Below are positions 4,041-32,257 of a DNA stretch of 40,157 nt, piece after piece. The DNA is taken from the IMG/VR virus record IMGVR_UViG_3300046557_000835; one strand, 5' to 3'. The DNA comes from a virus (taxonomy: Duplodnaviria; Heunggongvirae; Uroviricota; Caudoviricetes). The number at the start of each line of letters is the position of its first letter. Position 1 is the first letter of the stretch. The translations under genes were made by a program, and so were the position numbers. Under the pieces are notes generated by a model. It was not told the origin of the DNA. It saw nothing but the letters and a program-made list of their open reading frames with translations, and did not search any database.

Positions 4041-5372
4041 TCAAAGAATACGCGTTTTGAAGTCGTATTTCTTCAGCAGCAGTGCTTTACCGTGGTTTGC
4101 CTTCATGAACATCAGCATGATCGTTGAGCCGAAGTCCGAGATGGCGGAGGAAGAACCCGTCGGGTTTTCTTCCAAACGCGGACCGACGCACGCGGCGCAG
4201 TAGTCGGTATGCGGGAGGATACAATACATAGGAGAACGCGCCAGCACGTCTTTGCCTGCGTATTGCTTAATAACGTCTTCAGTCAAGCGCACGGTTGCGC
4301 CATCGACAATCACACTGAAGTTTAAGTACTTTTGCATCATGTCCGGGGTGAGCTTGATTTTCTTACCCAGCTTGGTACCGCAATCACCCGGCTTGATGTT
4401 GATGTTGCTCGATGCCCGTTGCAACCACTTCACCGATTCACCACCCTTCATGGTTTCGGCACCACGGTTGAACGAACCCGCCCGCAGGTTGTTGATCATG
4501 GCGGGCATTTTGTCCACGTCCCAGCCTTCAGCTAGCGACTTCGGCACCAGCTCCATGTTGTTACCGTCGCCCAGACCCGCCTCAGCACCCACCATCAAGA
4601 ATTTCTTGGCGCGGGTCACGTCGACTTTCGAGCCGATCAGGAAGTTCAGCGCATCGTCGCCCTTGAGCCATTCTTGGTCGAACGCTTTCAATTCCGCAGC
4701 AATCGCCGCGATGGTCGCGGGGTCGAAGTTGGTGTCCGACGGATCGATTCCATACTTCTTAAAGAGCGATGCTTTAAATTCAGCCAAGCCTGGCGGCGGC
4801 AGCAGCGTCTTGGCCGTACCACCCGTCACCCACAGGTTTGCAAAACCAGTGATGTAGGTCATGGCGTTGGTGAACTTGAGGTATTCGGAGACGTAGATCA
4901 GCTTCGGATTGATCGAGGTTGCCGTGTTGGTGGGTTGTCCATCGGCTGGATCATCGACCAGTAACGGCAGGATGATGTTTTCGAGTGCCTCCGGTTTCAT
5001 CCGACCAAGGATGAAGGGGATCTTGTTACCGAACGGGTACACCAACAAAATGCAGTTGGCCAGGATGTTGCCATAGCTGGTCTCGGCTTCGGTGGTTAGG
5101 TTTTCAATTGCCCCCGCTGGCAGCTTGACTTTCTCAGCTTTGTCGAATGGCGGTTGCCCCACTGTCGCGTCTTCCAGCGGCAGCAGTTCGTTGGGGTTCT
5201 CCGGGTTGACGAAGAACACACCAGTCAAAGTCTGCACAATCCGATACGGATACGGGTCAGCCTTGTAGGCATCCGGATTTTCTTGGGTCACAGCAAAGGC
5301 GCTGATCACCCAGTTCTTGTGGCGATGCATCCCAGCCTTCATTGCGGCTAGGAAGAATTCTAAACGTTTCAT
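4041..5372 (-). CDS. Virion RNA polymerase beta' subunit fragment (phiKZ gp80-like)
   Basis: beta' bridge-helix and Zn-site motifs RAGSFNRGAET, GDCGT, RSPMYC..DYCAACVG, and trigger-loop-like DFGSTIMLMFMKANH. Confidence 0.82.
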   Translation of the reverse strand: MKRLEFFLAAMKAGMHRHKNWVISAFAVTQENPDAYKADPYPYRIVQTLTGVFFVNPENPNELLPLEDATVGQPPFDKAEKVKLPAGAIENLTTEAETSYGNILANCILLVYPFGNKIPFILGRMKPEALENIILPLLVDDPADGQPTNTATSINPKLIYVSEYLKFTNAMTYITGFANLWVTGGTAKTLLPPPGLAEFKASLFKKYGIDPSDTNFDPATIAAIAAELKAFDQEWLKGDDALNFLIGSKVDVTRAKKFLMVGAEAGLGDGNNMELVPKSLAEGWDVDKMPAMINNLRAGSFNRGAETMKGGESVKWLQRASSNINIKPGDCGTKLGKKIKLTPDMMQKYLNFSVIVDGATVRLTEDVIKQYAGKDVLARSPMYCILPHTDYCAACVGPRLEENPTGSSSAISDFGSTIMLMFMKANHGKALLLKKYDFKTRIL

Positions 5373-6220
5373 TTCGAGTATCCCATCGTGAGCTTACGCA
5401 CTTCGACCATGACATCCGAGATGAGTTTCAAGTCAGGGATGAATTGCTCTAAGCACGCCTTCACCGTTTCACCCGGATTACCGTAGCCGTCGCTGGAGAT
5501 CAAGGCCGCAGCAAACAGTTCACGGGCAATCTGAATCCCCGGCATCGACAGAATCGGTTGCATCCCATCAATGAGTTTGGCGTACAGCTCAAACGTCATA
5601 CCTGGCCGGACACTACCTTGCAACATGTTCGGCACATGCACGATCGAACCCCCGACCGAAGTCAGGTAAATGTCGAACTTGCGGAATGCGTGAACCCGTT
5701 CACGGGTCTGATGCAGCTCATCGTCATCATGGTCGTGTAATTCAGCTTGGTTGCTGTCTTTCAAACGACGGAAGAAGGTTTCCGACACTTCTTCGACCGC
5801 CATCATCAGTTCATCCGTGGCCCAGGTCGTGACTTGGCCCAACATGGTGGCCAGCTTTTCGATCGGTCGAGCTTCTTCGTCCGCGATCTTAAAGAGCTGT
5901 TCGGGGTTTTCGACATTGTCGATATCCAGCAAACCATTGACGATATCGGCCAGCTGCTTGACACTCAAGTCTTCACGGACTTTGATTGCGTGCAAATCCA
6001 GCAGATAAATAAGGTTGTTGCGGTAGACAGCGAGCACCTCGACCAAGGCAGCGCCGGAATCCATCTCTTCTTTGGTAGAGAGGATTTCTTCAATCACGTG
6101 CTCGTACTCCATGTCTGCACGTTGTAACACACGGTCGGCCACCATCACGCAATTCTTCTCTTCCACTGTGGTCTCAGTGTCGAGGAAATCACTTAACAAG
6201 TCTAACATAGTTGGGATCAC
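5369..6220 (-). CDS. Hypothetical protein, translationally coupled to the vRNAP fragment
   Basis: 283 aa ORF whose stop overlaps the downstream ATG by 4 nt. Confidence 0.7.
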   Translation of the reverse strand: MIPTMLDLLSDFLDTETTVEEKNCVMVADRVLQRADMEYEHVIEEILSTKEEMDSGAALVEVLAVYRNNLIYLLDLHAIKVREDLSVKQLADIVNGLLDIDNVENPEQLFKIADEEARPIEKLATMLGQVTTWATDELMMAVEEVSETFFRRLKDSNQAELHDHDDDELHQTRERVHAFRKFDIYLTSVGGSIVHVPNMLQGSVRPGMTFELYAKLIDGMQPILSMPGIQIARELFAAALISSDGYGNPGETVKACLEQFIPDLKLISDVMVEVRKLTMGYSK

Positions 6221-26753: not shown

Positions 26754-26993
26754 TTACGACTCCTTCTTGTCTTCGTCCGGATGGATTTTACAGATGACCC
26801 CGCAACCACCATAGACATCGGTGAGCTTGAACCCTGGAGGGGGTGAATCGCTTTTCACCAACCCGTCTTCAGTCACGAGCGGGTCAAAGACGTGCTCGGT
26901 ACGGATATCTGCGCCGAGCTGGAATTCTTCCGGCTTCAGAATACCGTCAAACGGATCGCCGTTTCGATCGCTTTCGTATGCCATTGCTACCAT
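26754..26993 (-). CDS. Small acidic hypothetical protein
   Basis: ATG at 26993 with SD AAGGAG. Confidence 0.6.
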   Translation of the reverse strand: MVAMAYESDRNGDPFDGILKPEEFQLGADIRTEHVFDPLVTEDGLVKSDSPPPGFKLTDVYGGCGVICKIHPDEDKKES

Positions 26994-27023
26994 AATGCTC
27001 TCCTTTTTGTAAAACTGCAACCG

Positions 27024-27257
27024 CTACGCCGCCGCCATGTACAACGTCTTCATCCGTTCCAGAATTACTGGGTCAGGCGGTAAGTTCGGTGCCGCCTCGA
27101 TGAAGTTTGCTGCAGTAGATGTCCACGGTTTGGTCTTCGAGAAGTTACCCGACAACTGACGCGGGGTTGACGTACTCATCGCGCTGCGGTACGGCGCCAT
27201 GGCTTCGAAACGCTCGGCCATGTAATCGTCGATCAACAGCGTGCCGTTCATCTCATC
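27024..27257 (-). CDS. nvRNAP beta' N-terminal subunit, exon 2
   Basis: Begins GAT GAG ATG AAC (DEMN), restoring NADFDG-DEMN on joining to exon 1. Confidence 0.88.
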   Translation of the reverse strand, partial: DEMNGTLLIDDYMAERFEAMAPYRSAMSTSTPRQLSGNFSKTKPWTSTAANFIEAAPNLPPDPVILERMKTLYMAAA

Positions 27258-28775
27258 TGCGAGCCCTTACGGACTCATTGTATTAACTGAACGGATAAAT
27301 TTTCAGTTAACTTTTATCGTTTCTATCGTTGTTGTATTCAAACCACATCCGGGCTGGACCCCTTGACATGATCTAACATTTTACTGACGTTCTGCTCTTC
27401 GTAATACACTACTGTCCAATCCCCTAAACGACGAAGATTGTTTTTACCTAAAGCGTAAAACACAACTGGCCTGGTAAGTTTGCTGTGTGCAATAAACTCC
27501 GCAGCACTTTCGTACAGGTAAAGTTGCTCACGGCTATGATGCCATGCCGCTACTTGCTTCTTACCATGCCCGCGCGCTTTCTCGATGTCGGCTTCCGTAA
27601 TGTCTTGGAAGTCGTGATCGAGGTAAGCTACTTGGTATTGCTTTTTGAAAATCCTTACCACATCGCGATACGGGATCGCTTGGTGGATATGACTAGGATA
27701 CGTATCGAAGTGTTTACCGGCAGCGATGAATGATTCAAACTCCAACACTTCACCGGTATCGATATTGCGGAACTTCACACCTCTGATAGGTACTTTGCCG
27801 TCATCTACTTTACGTTCTTTGATCTTTTCTTTTTGAAGTTCCTTCGGAATACTACCCGAGTACTTCTTAAACGAAAAGCGCCAGCCTTCGACAGGTTTCT
27901 CGTCTTTAATCGAATCCCAAACCATCAAGTGCGGTACACCGGTCTTCTCTTCTGCATCCCACACACTCATGAAACCTTGAGTTAGTCGAGTATTTGCATC
28001 GCGATTAATTCGCTCACCTACAACGCAGAAGCGATGATTGTCTTTCTTCATCACTTTTAGGTGGATGTTATTCTGCAAAGGAGTAACCCATTCGACATTA
28101 TCTGCTCGATTATTGGCAGGATTCAAGTCTCGGTGATTAACGTAATTTTTTTCTCCCACGGGCTCACCATGAAAGGCGAAAGCAATCAGACGATGAACGC
28201 CGGCGGTAATCTGTTTCTTCAAACCAAATTCAATAACTTCTAAATTAACGGTAACGTATTTATCGCCATTAGCGTAGGTGTTTCTTTTGACCATGTCTTG
28301 GTCGTAGATGCCGCCTTCCGAATCTGCCAGAAACCCGAGTGTTCCTGGAATAGGTTTTATCTCCATGGGTTTCCTTTCTGTGTTTATTACAATACGAAAA
28401 CGATAGAAACTACTGGTTCGCTACACCAGCACCATTGATGTCCAGTCAATGATTACCGACACTTTCATGCCGGGCTAGACCATATCTTCATTCTTTCGAA
28501 TGCTTTCCGTTTCGGCCCCCGCTTGGGATAGACGATTGAACAGTCGTCTACTTGTAAGCCTACTCTACTCCCTTGTCCTATTGCTAGGCGGTTTCGATGG
28601 TCGTTGATCGCACTTCTGCTCTAGAAGCTTTGAGGCGGATTACCCAATTCTTTTCGTTGTTACCATACCCGAGATCATTACATCGGCCGCTGATACATTT
28701 CTGGATCAGGTTGGTAGAAAAGACTCTAAGGGACTTCCCGCGGTTAGGAAAGTTTAACGACAGCGATGAGTATTT
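27258..28775 (-). mobile_element. Group I intron (IA-like, 1518 nt) in the RNAP active-site codons
   Basis: P1: exon CGACGGU pairs with GCUGUCG with the U-G wobble at the splice site. P10: CUCAUC pairs with exon 2 GAUGAG. P/Q: CGCGGGAA and AAUCCGC. P3: CUUUCC/GGAAAG. R: UCAACGACCA (28595-28609). S: AAGAUAUGGUCU (28475-28489). P8 and P9 have GAAA loops. Confidence 0.92.
27338..28366 (-). CDS. Intron-encoded HNH homing endonuclease with NUMOD-type DNA-binding repeats
   Basis: VHRLIAFAF...VNHRDLNPANNRADNVEW (HNH); repeated F.S...A motifs (FMSVWDAE, FESFIAAG, YESAAEF); visibly more AT-rich than the flanks. Confidence 0.92.
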   Translation of the reverse strand: MEIKPIPGTLGFLADSEGGIYDQDMVKRNTYANGDKYVTVNLEVIEFGLKKQITAGVHRLIAFAFHGEPVGEKNYVNHRDLNPANNRADNVEWVTPLQNNIHLKVMKKDNHRFCVVGERINRDANTRLTQGFMSVWDAEEKTGVPHLMVWDSIKDEKPVEGWRFSFKKYSGSIPKELQKEKIKERKVDDGKVPIRGVKFRNIDTGEVLEFESFIAAGKHFDTYPSHIHQAIPYRDVVRIFKKQYQVAYLDHDFQDITEADIEKARGHGKKQVAAWHHSREQLYLYESAAEFIAHSKLTRPVVFYALGKNNLRRLGDWTVVYYEEQNVSKMLDHVKGSSPDVV

Positions 28776-30113
28776 ACCGTCGAAATCAGCATTGAACCCT
28801 CTGACTGTTAAGATGCTGAGTGATACTGTTTGGTCGGCGGCATCAGTCTTGACCTTGCTGATGTAGAACAACTGCATCGAGCCCAAGCCGAGACTCGGGT
28901 TACGCTGGAAGATCGTGGGCAGACCCTTGACACCGGAGTCTGGTGCCACTTCCCATTTCGATTCATTGATCAGTTCGATGAACAACTCGTTAATCAATGG
29001 GTTGAATTCCGTCGCATAACGGTTCAAGAACCGCCACACTTCGTTGGGCAACCAACCACGTTCTTTGAGCTTCTTCGCTAGGTGTAAACGCAGTAAGCCC
29101 ATGGCTACGCCCCACGGGATGTGGAGTTCGCGGTGGTAGTGGTCCGCCGTCAGCGAAGTAATCACTGCACGGAACGACCAGTCGCAGCGGGTTGCCGCTA
29201 GGTGTTTACGTGAAATGCCCTCCTTCGATGAGAACGACTTCTTGTTGAACTCTTGGTAATACGTGGCCAGATTTGCGATAGCCCGCACCACCCGGTTTTG
29301 GCGCATGGTTGAACTGTAGTTGTTCAGTGGGTCGTCGAGACCGATCAACGATTCGATCGCATCAATCGCAATCGGTACGTTCGAGTCGACATACACCGCC
29401 ATGTCCGTATCCTCGACCACCAACAAGGTTTTGTTAGGTAGGGCGAGTCGTTCCGAGAAGATCTTCTCACGGTTCATCTGCAACAACTTCAGAATGTGAT
29501 GGACCTCGTTCGGATTGTCTTGCTTCTTCTTCCGGAAGTCACTGATGGTCAGCAGCTTCTCAATGATCCCTGGGCCGATGATCTCACCCGTCTTGTCATC
29601 AACGGTGTGGAAGAAGTTTTGAACGAACTTGTTGTAACCCCGCTCGCGTTCCAGCCCCATCGTTTGCAACTGCGCAAAGATCTTGGGGGGTTTGTCCGGC
29701 ACCGGATACTTGGTGTCGCACAACCAGTGGATGACGTTAAACCGCCCTTTCTTGAAGTGGTTCGACAGAATCGTCCAGATGGTTGGGTTGATCAGCTTCG
29801 CGACATCTTTCGGCTGCTTCAACCACACGAGGGATTCCAGCTTTTGCTCCCGGACGTTCATCACGGGTTTGTTGCAGTTGTTGCACACCACCCCGAGGAA
29901 TCGGCGACCTTGCAAACCTTCGCCGGTTGGGCAATGGCAGCGCGGGGTGTTGGTTAGAACGTCATTGGGCTGGTACCGCGTGAAGATCTTCTCTTTGAAC
30001 GCTTTGAGCGCGCTGTCCGAGCATTCCTGGAAATCGTTGATAATGATCGGGTCAGTACGCGACTGGGAAGCCCACAAGTCGTCGTGACTTACAATACGCA
30101 GGTAAGTACCGAT
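28776..30113 (-). CDS. nvRNAP beta' N-terminal (catalytic) subunit, exon 1 (phiKZ gp55-like); probable ATC start
   Basis: Zn-finger CHC...CNNC, KEGISRKHL, FRAVITS, FQRNPSL and RGFNADFDG. No in-frame ATG; GAGGAG lies 6 nt before ATC at 30113. Confidence 0.88.
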
Positions 30114-30232: not shown

Positions 30233-32257
30233 TTAGTACGTGCGGGTGTGCGCCATGCTGCGGTAGCCAGCCTGCGCGCCGCCGCCGTAGGCCGGGCCGT
30301 TCTGGAACATCGTCGGCACGAAGCCGGCGTTGAGCGCACCTGCTTGCGCCAGACCGTACGGCGTACGCATTGCCATGCGGTTGTCCTGCTGGGCGATTTC
30401 GATACGCGGACGCAAACCGGTTTGCTCGATCGACTGGTCTGCCGCACGGATGAAGTCCGGGTGGAAGGTCTTGTGGATCGAGATGCCGGTGTAGGTCACG
30501 TTGTGTACGACCTGCTCGATGATCTTGGCACGGGCGGCCAGTTGAGCATCGTTGCTGCCACCGAAGGTAGCGGCCCAGCGGCGGCCGATTTCCGGATCTT
30601 CGTGACCCTTGGCGTTCATGACGAACAGCAGGTCCACGTTGCGCAGGTCTTGCGGACGACCGTCGCCGTCGATGTAGAAACCATTCAGCACGCGCTCGGC
30701 GCGCGGCAGGACGATCAGGCGGCTCGACTGCGGGGTGAAGAACAGCTGGCTGAAACGGTTGTCCGTCAGGGCGTCCATCGCCGACACGATCGCCTGGTAG
30801 GCTTCCGGCACATCGCTAGCTTCAGCGAAGATACGGGTGAACCAGGTTTCCGCACCAGCGATACCGCAGTCGATCGACAGCGCCGGCGCCGGCTGGATGA
30901 TTGCGTTGACCAGCGCGTAGTAATTCTCGATGCCGAACTCGTTCTGGTTGTTGGTCGGGAACGGTGCCACGACCATCTGGCCGTCGACCATGGTTTTCAG
31001 GCCGTAGTCGAAGTTCAGGGCGCCCAGGTCACGCGGACGGAAGTTGTCGTGACGGGTCGGCGACGCGCCGTTCATTTGCAGGTGACGCGGCAGGAAGTTG
31101 CGCAGCCACGGACGCTCTTGCGAGTTCAGCACCGCGAAGATCGTCGACAGCTGCAGCAGGACATTGCCGAGGTCCGGGGTCAGGCGCATGTCGAAACCGG
31201 TCATGGTCACTTCAGCGCTGTATTCCTGGGTGGCTTCGTTGCCTTGCTGCGCCGGCATGCCCATGTAACGGTTGGCACGTGCCGGGACCGGATCGATATT
31301 CAGGGTGATCGAGGCCAGGGTGGTGCCCAGGTCCATCACGCCTGCGGTGTTTTCGGTCTGGTCGGCGCGGTTGGTCTGACGCGGCTGCTCCGAACGGAAG
31401 GCTGCGACGACTTCGCCACGGATCGGATTGCCGGCCGGGTCGAATGCTTCCACCGGGGGGTTGACCTGGTCTTGGTTGAAGTGCACCGAGTTGACCAGGA
31501 TGCCGTCGCCGGCGACGCTCGACAGGCTGTCGTAACGGAAACCCGGGGTCTTGGTTTCCAGTTCGGTCCAGCAGGCGCGCAGTGCGTTCAGGAACAGGGT
31601 GGCGACAGCGACCGGATCGTTGATCTTGAAGCTGGTCGGCACCGTGGTCCAGTCGGCGTTGATCAGGTTGCTCTGCGGGACGATCTGCGCGACGCGGAAA
31701 CGGATGACCTTGGCCAGGGCTTCGTCGGCCAGGGTTGCCGGGGTACGCGGAGCGGTGATCTGCTCTTGTGCGTACTGACCGTACAGTTCGTTGGTGCGGG
31801 TCGGTGCGGTCATCGACATGTCGGACGCGATCAGCAGGGTGTGGTAGGCGACGCGGTTGTCCGAGCCTTCGACGATGACCATGATCAGGCCGATCGCGTT
31901 GCTGTTGTTCTCGGCGCCGATGATCGAACCGCGGGTTGCCGGGACGATGCGGACGTTGATACCGTTCAGGTCGGTGGTCTTCTGGGTCTCGTAGTAATCT
32001 TGCAGTTTCTTCGCCAGTTCGGCGACATCGCGGCCACCGTTCTGCGGCATGCCGCCGATGCGACCACGGCTCAGCAGAGCGCTGATGCCACCCGGACGGG
32101 CGCCGCCGACGGGAGCGCCACCTTGCGGCGGCTGCTGATAGTTGGCTTGACCCTGGCCGGCTTGACCGGCGGCTTGGGTGTAGGCTTGTGCCATCTGGTC
32201 ATTCTGTTGGCCACCGGTGTTGGTGTTCGGGGCCGGGTTCTGGGTACCAGTTTTCAT
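30233..32257 (-). CDS. chmA: Chimallin, phage nuclear shell protein
   Basis: 674 aa with a Q/G-rich N-terminal tail. Segments GNPIRGEVV, RDLGALNF, DGDGRPQDLRNVDLL and VTYTG...FIRAAD match chimallin as I recall it, and it sits directly upstream of the nvRNAP beta' N gene. Confidence 0.88.
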   Translation of the reverse strand: MKTGTQNPAPNTNTGGQQNDQMAQAYTQAAGQAGQGQANYQQPPQGGAPVGGARPGGISALLSRGRIGGMPQNGGRDVAELAKKLQDYYETQKTTDLNGINVRIVPATRGSIIGAENNSNAIGLIMVIVEGSDNRVAYHTLLIASDMSMTAPTRTNELYGQYAQEQITAPRTPATLADEALAKVIRFRVAQIVPQSNLINADWTTVPTSFKINDPVAVATLFLNALRACWTELETKTPGFRYDSLSSVAGDGILVNSVHFNQDQVNPPVEAFDPAGNPIRGEVVAAFRSEQPRQTNRADQTENTAGVMDLGTTLASITLNIDPVPARANRYMGMPAQQGNEATQEYSAEVTMTGFDMRLTPDLGNVLLQLSTIFAVLNSQERPWLRNFLPRHLQMNGASPTRHDNFRPRDLGALNFDYGLKTMVDGQMVVAPFPTNNQNEFGIENYYALVNAIIQPAPALSIDCGIAGAETWFTRIFAEASDVPEAYQAIVSAMDALTDNRFSQLFFTPQSSRLIVLPRAERVLNGFYIDGDGRPQDLRNVDLLFVMNAKGHEDPEIGRRWAATFGGSNDAQLAARAKIIEQVVHNVTYTGISIHKTFHPDFIRAADQSIEQTGLRPRIEIAQQDNRMAMRTPYGLAQAGALNAGFVPTMFQNGPAYGGGAQAGYRSMAHTRTY

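Follow-up and report, generated by a model that had tools for sequence, protein, structure and literature searches.

The DNA analysed here, a whole stretch of 40,157 nucleotides (nt) referred to as the window, belongs to a phage of the Caudoviricetes (IMG/VR record IMGVR_UViG_3300046557_000835) and carries on its minus strand a group I intron. This intron interrupts the gene for the beta' subunit of a jumbo-phage non-virion RNA polymerase (nvRNAP), between the codons for DFDG and for the final D of the catalytic DFDGD motif, and its last base appears from the sequence to be A27258. We consider it likely that this is a mobile intron bearing an HNH open reading frame (ORF), and that it belongs to a clade in which a terminal A is functional. 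Textbooks hold the terminal G of group I introns (omega-G) to be essential for the second splicing step, and the window intron would be a clean natural exception to this, in a gene that is essential. Its A has persisted across saturating divergence with the guanosine pocket unchanged, and close G-ending sisters at the same site provide built-in controls. Such introns offer a small, easily synthesised system for studying 3' splice site recognition without omega-G, and any intron-finding or annotation pipeline that insists on a terminal G will put their junctions in the wrong place.

Splice junctions and the terminal base

The features on which the placement of the junctions depends are the following (a caret marks a splice junction throughout).

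28776..30077, minus strand: exon 1 of nvRNAP beta' (phiKZ gp55-like), from the ORF list; ends ...NADFDG
27258..28775, minus strand: group I intron, 1518 nt, first base A28775, last base A27258 (Rfam, protein alignment, P1/P10 pairing, same-site introns)
27024..27257, minus strand: exon 2, DEMNGTLL... to the stop (ORF list and protein alignment); its first 6 bases are the P10 strand
28776..28782, minus strand: P1 exon strand CGACGGU, paired with 28764-28758; U28776 is the -1 base
28758..28770, minus strand: internal guide, with the P10 strand CUCAUC (28770-28765) followed by the P1 strand GCUGUCG (28764-28758)
28474..28475, minus strand: J7/9 dinucleotide GC, the 5' strand of P9.0, paired with G27260 C27259
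27258..27260, minus strand: G27260 C27259, the 3' strand of P9.0, and A27258, the omega position

The interrupted gene encodes the N-terminal beta' subunit of a jumbo-phage nvRNAP (phiKZ gp55-like), as seen from its homology and from the NADFDGD Mg-binding motif region. Exon 1 matched 300 jumbo-phage records by tblastn (best, 41.6%, Burkholderia phage FLC9), its protein gives a weak PF00623 match at residues 387-434, and the start codon of the gene may lie upstream of 30077. Exon 1 ends with AAU GCU GAU UUC GAC GGU, the last base being 28776, while exon 2 opens with GAU GAG AUG AAC at 27257 and comprises 77 codons up to a stop at 27024. Joining 28776 to 27257 gives a protein of 511 residues that aligns without gaps through N[AC]DFDGD with the proteins of the intronless Burkholderia phage FLC9, Ralstonia phage FLC4-3B and two uncultured phages (L006 and L008). 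The insertion point thereby falls between G and D of NADFDG^DEMN. The initial annotation was right that an unspliced message would give a truncated subunit, but the 64 intron codons that it counted are 63 unrelated residues followed by a stop.

The RNA pairings point to the same junction. CUCAUC-GCUGUCG, the guide at 28770-28758, forms an uninterrupted run of pairs with CGACGGU^GAUGAG. P1 is 7 base pairs (bp) long and is closed by the U28776·G28764 wobble, the U·G pair expected of group I introns at the 5' splice site; P10 is 6 bp long, is contiguous with P1 and pairs 28770-28765 with 27257-27252. In P9.0, G28475 and C28474 pair with G27260 and C27259, and A27258 directly follows this paired dinucleotide. 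The 3' splice site is thus marked by both P10 and P9.0. Because P9.0 covaries across nine members of the family (GC/GC, UU/AA, UA/UA, AA/UU and AU/AU), the omega position is fixed independently of the protein argument. Both splice sites proposed in the initial annotation are therefore borne out, by the gapless protein alignment, by P1/P10 pairing, by P9.0 and by introns at the same site, and so is a junction placed after a terminal A. The window intron lacks omega-G at this position. A terminal G is near-universal yet not strictly defining for group I introns, the accepted members ND5-717 and Cbu.L1917 being without it.

It had also been claimed that only this junction restores the reading frame, which goes too far: a shifted junction with exon 1 ending in GG also yields DFDGD, since GG plus A still encodes Gly. 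We rejected this candidate, an intron running from U to C, as it breaks the rules for U(-1) and omega and its last base varies in the relatives (C, C, A, C).

The base itself is well established. Over 26800-29200, the window does not differ from the contigs of two runs (rhizosphere metagenomes, word depth ~10 and ~14), and its sequence recurs in a JGI contig of 273 kb; the identity of the contigs from the two runs excludes a sequencing error as the origin of the terminal A. One apparent strain variant, P0122, was discarded as it differs from P0001 solely in the translation of a TTG start and adds no independent support. The exact pattern of the 3' tail had no matches in viral contigs.

A-ending introns at a polymerase hot spot

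A search with the HNH protein identified three closest sister introns, L092 (JGI 3300062335), L093/L094 (found in two unrelated SRA runs) and L095 (JGI 3300060283), whose HNH proteins are respectively 80, 68 and 60% identical to that of the window intron. All three have the same junction and end in A, with the tails ...CCGACA^GAUGAG (L092), ...GCUUAAA^GACGAA (L093/L094) and ...GUCGGCA^GAUGAA (L095). The next relatives, L096, L097 and L098 (45-48% identical), end in G. Because the four A-ending HNH proteins form one clade with 100/100 support, a single G-to-A change in the ancestor of the clade would be the simplest history. P0136 (49% HNH identity) was left out of the scoring of terminal bases, as its contig stops 20 nt past the ORF. 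A single-protein HNH scan of metagenome contigs gave no matches, and alignment-based scans of viral and metagenome contigs returned only distant HNH domains together with L180 (48%) and L181 (35%), and no further A-ending members.

Synonymous sites are saturated within the clade (dS, synonymous substitutions per site, of 1.1 to infinity), and the ratio of nonsynonymous to synonymous rates (dN/dS) stays at 0.11 in beta' and at 0.05-0.13 in the HNH ORF. Comparison of only four sequences reveals compensatory double changes at 21 pairs of the ribozyme core, and P9.0 covaries inside the clade from GC/GC to UU/AA. Purifying selection acts on the ribozyme, on the HNH ORF and on the host gene. Such selection would not persist on a polymerase gene incapable of being spliced, and we therefore infer that splicing proceeds correctly with the terminal A. 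In this small clade of mobile introns, the A is conserved and evidently functional.

The stretch encoding DFDGD is a hot spot for introns, 57 of 92 scored loci being uninterrupted (the 92 include some duplicate or re-fetched contigs). The introns of other jumbo phages fall at four sites.

DFDG^D, the site of the window intron: pEa_SNUABM_54, Totoro, L007, L020, L046, L047, L096, L097, L098, L021, L051, L072 and L080; all 13 end in G
NAD^FDGD: several introns, ending in G
N^ADFDGD: several introns, ending in G
DFDGD^x: several introns, ending in G

An alignment with same-site introns of related phages, proposed in the initial annotation as a check, thus separates a window clade ending in A from 13 others ending in G. 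The two groups share the insertion point GGU^...^GAY, a homologous core with near-identical J8/7 and P7, a P10 that abuts P1 and the same P9.0, as well as a homologous HNH ORF looped out by the same GAUAGAA helix, after which come a hairpin, ACAAU and the tail. What sets the window clade apart is its last base, A, which comes without an accompanying change in P7.

Several observations concern the neighbourhood of the insertion site. The closest relative of the window phage (L009/L010, run X3; beta' 96% identical) is without the window intron (compare window positions 27254-28784). At 4793-6003, this relative has an unrelated group I intron of 1209 nt with a 197-residue HNH ORF, located 9 nt upstream (NAD^FDGD) and ending in G. 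Around the two sites, the phages show synonymous differences in their Asp codons, GAC and GAU being swapped, which may reflect immunity of the endonuclease targets. Several uncultured jumbo phages have two introns at once in the motif, separated by mini-exons of 9 or 12 nt that encode FDG or DFDG:

L098, 649-660: mini-exon
L051, 5064-5072: mini-exon
L021, 5125-5136: mini-exon
L072, 6759-6770: mini-exon
L080, 5141-5149: mini-exon

In the records of pEa_SNUABM_54 (L003, MW879341.1), Totoro (L004, ON287372.1) and Pseudomonas phage PS119XW (L005, MN103543.1), beta' is annotated as a truncated coding sequence; exon 2 is sometimes a separate small ORF and the introns are unannotated.

The window phage is uncultured; several samples yielded it as assembled contigs of ~273 kb, and none of 50,697 phage records matched the region in a megablast search. 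Directly upstream of the beta' gene, at 30233-32257 on the minus strand, lies a homologue of chimallin, the protein of the phage-nucleus shell (PF25677 in matching contigs), and this neighbour confirms the phage as a nucleus-forming chimallivirus.

Intron architecture and the second splicing step

The identification as a group I intron made in the initial annotation is confirmed by a match to RF00028 of 56.8 bits (E 2.9e-13), above the gathering score of 50. The intron is IA-like in its build, with a P7.1/P7.2 extension, and mobile. Its remaining features are listed below.

28456..28820, minus strand: catalytic core, P1 to P9 (Rfam RF00028 Intron_gpI, full model 1-253)
28598..28604, minus strand: P7 5' strand A[C]GACCA, with C28603 bulged and G28602 the guanosine-binding G (Rfam alignment)
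28477..28482, minus strand: P7 3' strand UGGUCU; C28478 pairs with G28602
28456..28473, minus strand: P9 hairpin with a GAAA loop; three pairs have compensatory changes inside the A-ending clade
28412..28453, minus strand: two P9-extension hairpins (28453-28431 and 28430-28412), from a consensus fold with compensatory changes
28399..28410, minus strand: 5' strand of the ORF-looping long-range helix, GUUUCUAUCGUU, complementary to 27330-27319 over 12 bp
27338..28366, minus strand: HNH ORF, 342 amino acids (PF13392 HNH_3, E 8.1e-9, residues 56-100), with a dN/dS of 0.09-0.13
27319..27330, minus strand: 3' strand of the ORF-looping helix, AACGAUAGAAAC, conserved in all relatives
27283..27311, minus strand: a hairpin followed by conserved ACAAU; every relative has a differently sequenced hairpin at the same place
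27261..27276, minus strand: terminal hairpin GAGUCC-GUAA-GGGCUC, in the window phage only

The layout of the guide, with the P10 strand abutting the P1 strand, is also found in L092, L095, L003, L004 and L007. In the ORF-looping helix, L093 has a compensating change on both strands. The terminal hairpin is an insertion unique to the window phage; it is absent from L092, L093 and L095, in which ACAAU (or ACAGA, ACAGU) leads directly into a tail of 6-8 nt.

The PF13392 match includes the HNH catalytic motif of intron-encoded homing endonucleases of the I-HmuI-like type. Homologues of the HNH protein lie inside the same-site introns of Erwinia phage pEa_SNUABM_54 and Serratia phage Totoro, and the insertion site is empty in related genomes, the presence/absence pattern of a mobile element. 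The ORF is thus predicted from its sequence to encode a homing endonuclease.

P7 reads 5'-A[C]GACCA / UGGUCU. The bulged base is C28603 and not the A of the initial annotation, which was nevertheless correct in stating that the guanosine-binding G-C pair is kept: G28602 pairs with C28478 beside the bulge. Since this pair is unchanged, the first step is expected to be ordinary: a free guanosine held in the G28602-C28478 site of P7 would attack after U28776, positioned by the U·G pair of P1. In the second step, the 3'-OH of U28776 would attack the bond between A27258 and G27257, which P10 (6 bp, contiguous with P1) and P9.0 (G28475 C28474 with C27259 G27260) would hold in position. A27258 would sit more weakly in the pocket that usually receives omega-G, and the intramolecular tethering would offset the lost contacts.

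Several points weigh against our interpretation. The use of GGU^GAU, and with it splicing and the position of the junction, is something that we infer; none of the listed sequencing runs is an RNA run with this DNA. The P9.0 of L092 has one standard pair (GC versus AC), and the L093 contig is without its 5' end, so that L093 is excluded from the P1/P10 comparison. The runs and the JGI assemblies containing the window phage probably come from one sampling campaign, and same-campaign contigs exclude a sequencing slip yet are not independent populations. The combination of an unchanged G-C site with a terminal A is mechanistically awkward, because changing the terminal G of the Tetrahymena ribozyme to A reportedly impairs exon ligation severely unless the binding pair is changed as well. 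In the engineered Tetrahymena ribozyme in which a terminal A is said to serve in exon ligation (G264A:C311U with G414A), the binding pair has become A-U, whereas that of the window intron stays G-C.

A search for compensating changes in the P7, J6/7 and J8/7 of the A-ending clade gave none, and the G-ending L007 has exactly the P7 of this clade (A[C]GACCA / UGGUCU). An A replacing U before UCAAC was considered as a compensating change and rejected, being covariation within P6. Near the splice site, the one feature seen to be specific to the clade is the first base of J7/9 (window position 28476, adjoining P7 on its 3' side). All four A-ending introns have A there; of the eight G-ending same-site introns scored, seven have C or G and L003 alone has A. 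This base could be linked to the accommodation of the terminal A, or reflect shared ancestry. The initial annotation had proposed that a long P10 compensates for the missing G. We reject this idea because the lengths of P10 overlap: 4-6 bp in the A-ending clade (6 in the window) versus 3-8 bp in G-ending same-site relatives.

It is conceivable, though in our view unlikely, that the second step is beyond the ribozyme alone and needs a protein (the HNH protein as a maturase, an RNA-binding protein of the phage nucleus or a host helicase), or that it is a deliberately slow timer of nvRNAP. The G-binding pair has remained unchanged although its partner base is not G, and laboratory ribozymes with a terminal A reportedly ligate poorly. 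Every A-ending member has an intact HNH ORF under purifying selection, and the ORF-less introns L007 and L020 end in G. The separation of transcription from translation in these phages would leave time for a slow step (PMC12908238). However, with only four A-ending members the link to the ORF may be due to chance, the ORF-bearing L096, L097, L003, L004 and L046 all end in G, and no candidate protein was identified. The Coxiella L1917 intron, moreover, is reported to self-splice in vitro.

A different 5' or 3' splice site with a canonical G, resulting in an altered subunit or in two polypeptides, seems very improbable. There are G residues nearby at 27264, 27260, 27257 and 27252, and an intron ending with G27257 would leave overlapping stop and start codons (AUGA) ahead of the AUG of exon 2. 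Yet each of these sites shifts the frame into a stop or breaks the Mg-binding triad (DFDG-LA-D, DFDG-MN, DFDGMR-stop), none has support from P10 or P9.0, and the nearby G residues are not conserved in L092, L093 and L095, whose tails differ, while DFDGD is invariant in homologues.

An error of sequencing or assembly, or a recent lethal mutation in a dead genome, would take only one G-to-A change in a window that comes from a metagenome assembly, but it can be dismissed: two libraries agree on the base at depth 10-14, the A recurs in three diverged sister introns of unrelated samples, and the host gene, the HNH ORF and the ribozyme helices are under purifying selection across saturated synonymous divergence.

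The reading that we favour therefore stays that of a mobile HNH-bearing intron with a functional terminal A. A further suggestion, that the A is itself adaptive, strikes us as doubtful and quite speculative: it would suppress side reactions of the guanosine site (3' splice-site hydrolysis, circularisation, reverse splicing), or tie ligation to a phage or intron factor and thereby time or license the catalytic subunit of the nvRNAP in the phage nucleus.

Comparison with known introns

Besides the G-ending introns at the same site, a comparable system is found in other jumbo phages. In phiPA3, gp210 is an RNA polymerase gene with a group I intron that encodes an HNH nicking endonuclease (Birkholz et al., 2024, PMC11620839), and this endonuclease can act in the competition between co-infecting phages (PMC11620839). 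The introns of phiPA3 gp210 and phiKZ gp72 resemble that of the window in being HNH-bearing group I introns located at conserved catalytic residues of a multisubunit RNA polymerase gene. Unlike the window intron, which interrupts the DFDGD of nvRNAP beta', the one in phiPA3 belongs to the virion RNA polymerase and follows two conserved Asp of its beta subunit. No unusual terminal base is reported for jumbo-phage polymerase introns of the gp210 type in the literature that we searched, and the guess of the initial annotation that A-ending introns had already been described in such genes found no support there.

A-ending group I introns are documented in other hosts. The ND5-717 intron of hexacoral mitochondria ends in A and its exons are perfectly ligated in vivo (Chi et al., 2019, PMC6545197). 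It differs from the window intron in being organellar and strictly vertical, in holding whole genes in P8 with no homing endonuclease, in splicing at low efficiency or by back-splicing, and in belonging to an unrelated intron lineage. The second case is the Cbu.L1917 intron in Coxiella burnetii's 23S rRNA gene, which the title of Raghavan et al. (2007, J Bacteriol 189:6572) describes as one that 'lacks the canonical omegaG'.

To the Coxiella example can be added a scan of 23S genes, each species being represented by a single genome, for A as the base just ahead of position 1918. There were matches in nine species (L260-L268): Patescibacteria, Chloroflexota, Bipolaricaulota, a Puniceicoccales metagenome-assembled genome (MAG) and an archaeal MAG. 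The upstream exon end CCGUAACUAU was located in eight of the nine, 284-825 nt ahead of the match, which shows an A-ending insertion following U1917; a search for this exon end in L262 (Puniceicoccales) was negative. Of four insertions run through Rfam, two (L264 and L268) are recognised as group I introns, and the one alignment inspected (L264) has a canonical P7 with a bulged A and the G-C pair. The L1917 introns have a 7-bp P10 abutting P1. The pattern scan did not return Coxiella itself. The L1917 family may commonly be without omega-G.

These A-ending L1917 introns share with the phage clade the lack of a terminal G, the canonical G-C pair in P7 and a P10 that abuts P1, while differing from the window intron in their host gene (rRNA), in their subgroup and in their sequence, which is unrelated. 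Because A-ending group I introns are documented in hexacoral ND5-717 and in Coxiella L1917, the novelty of the window intron is lowered: it is not unprecedented, and is best described as a new and well-supported member of a rare but documented kind rather than as a new kind.

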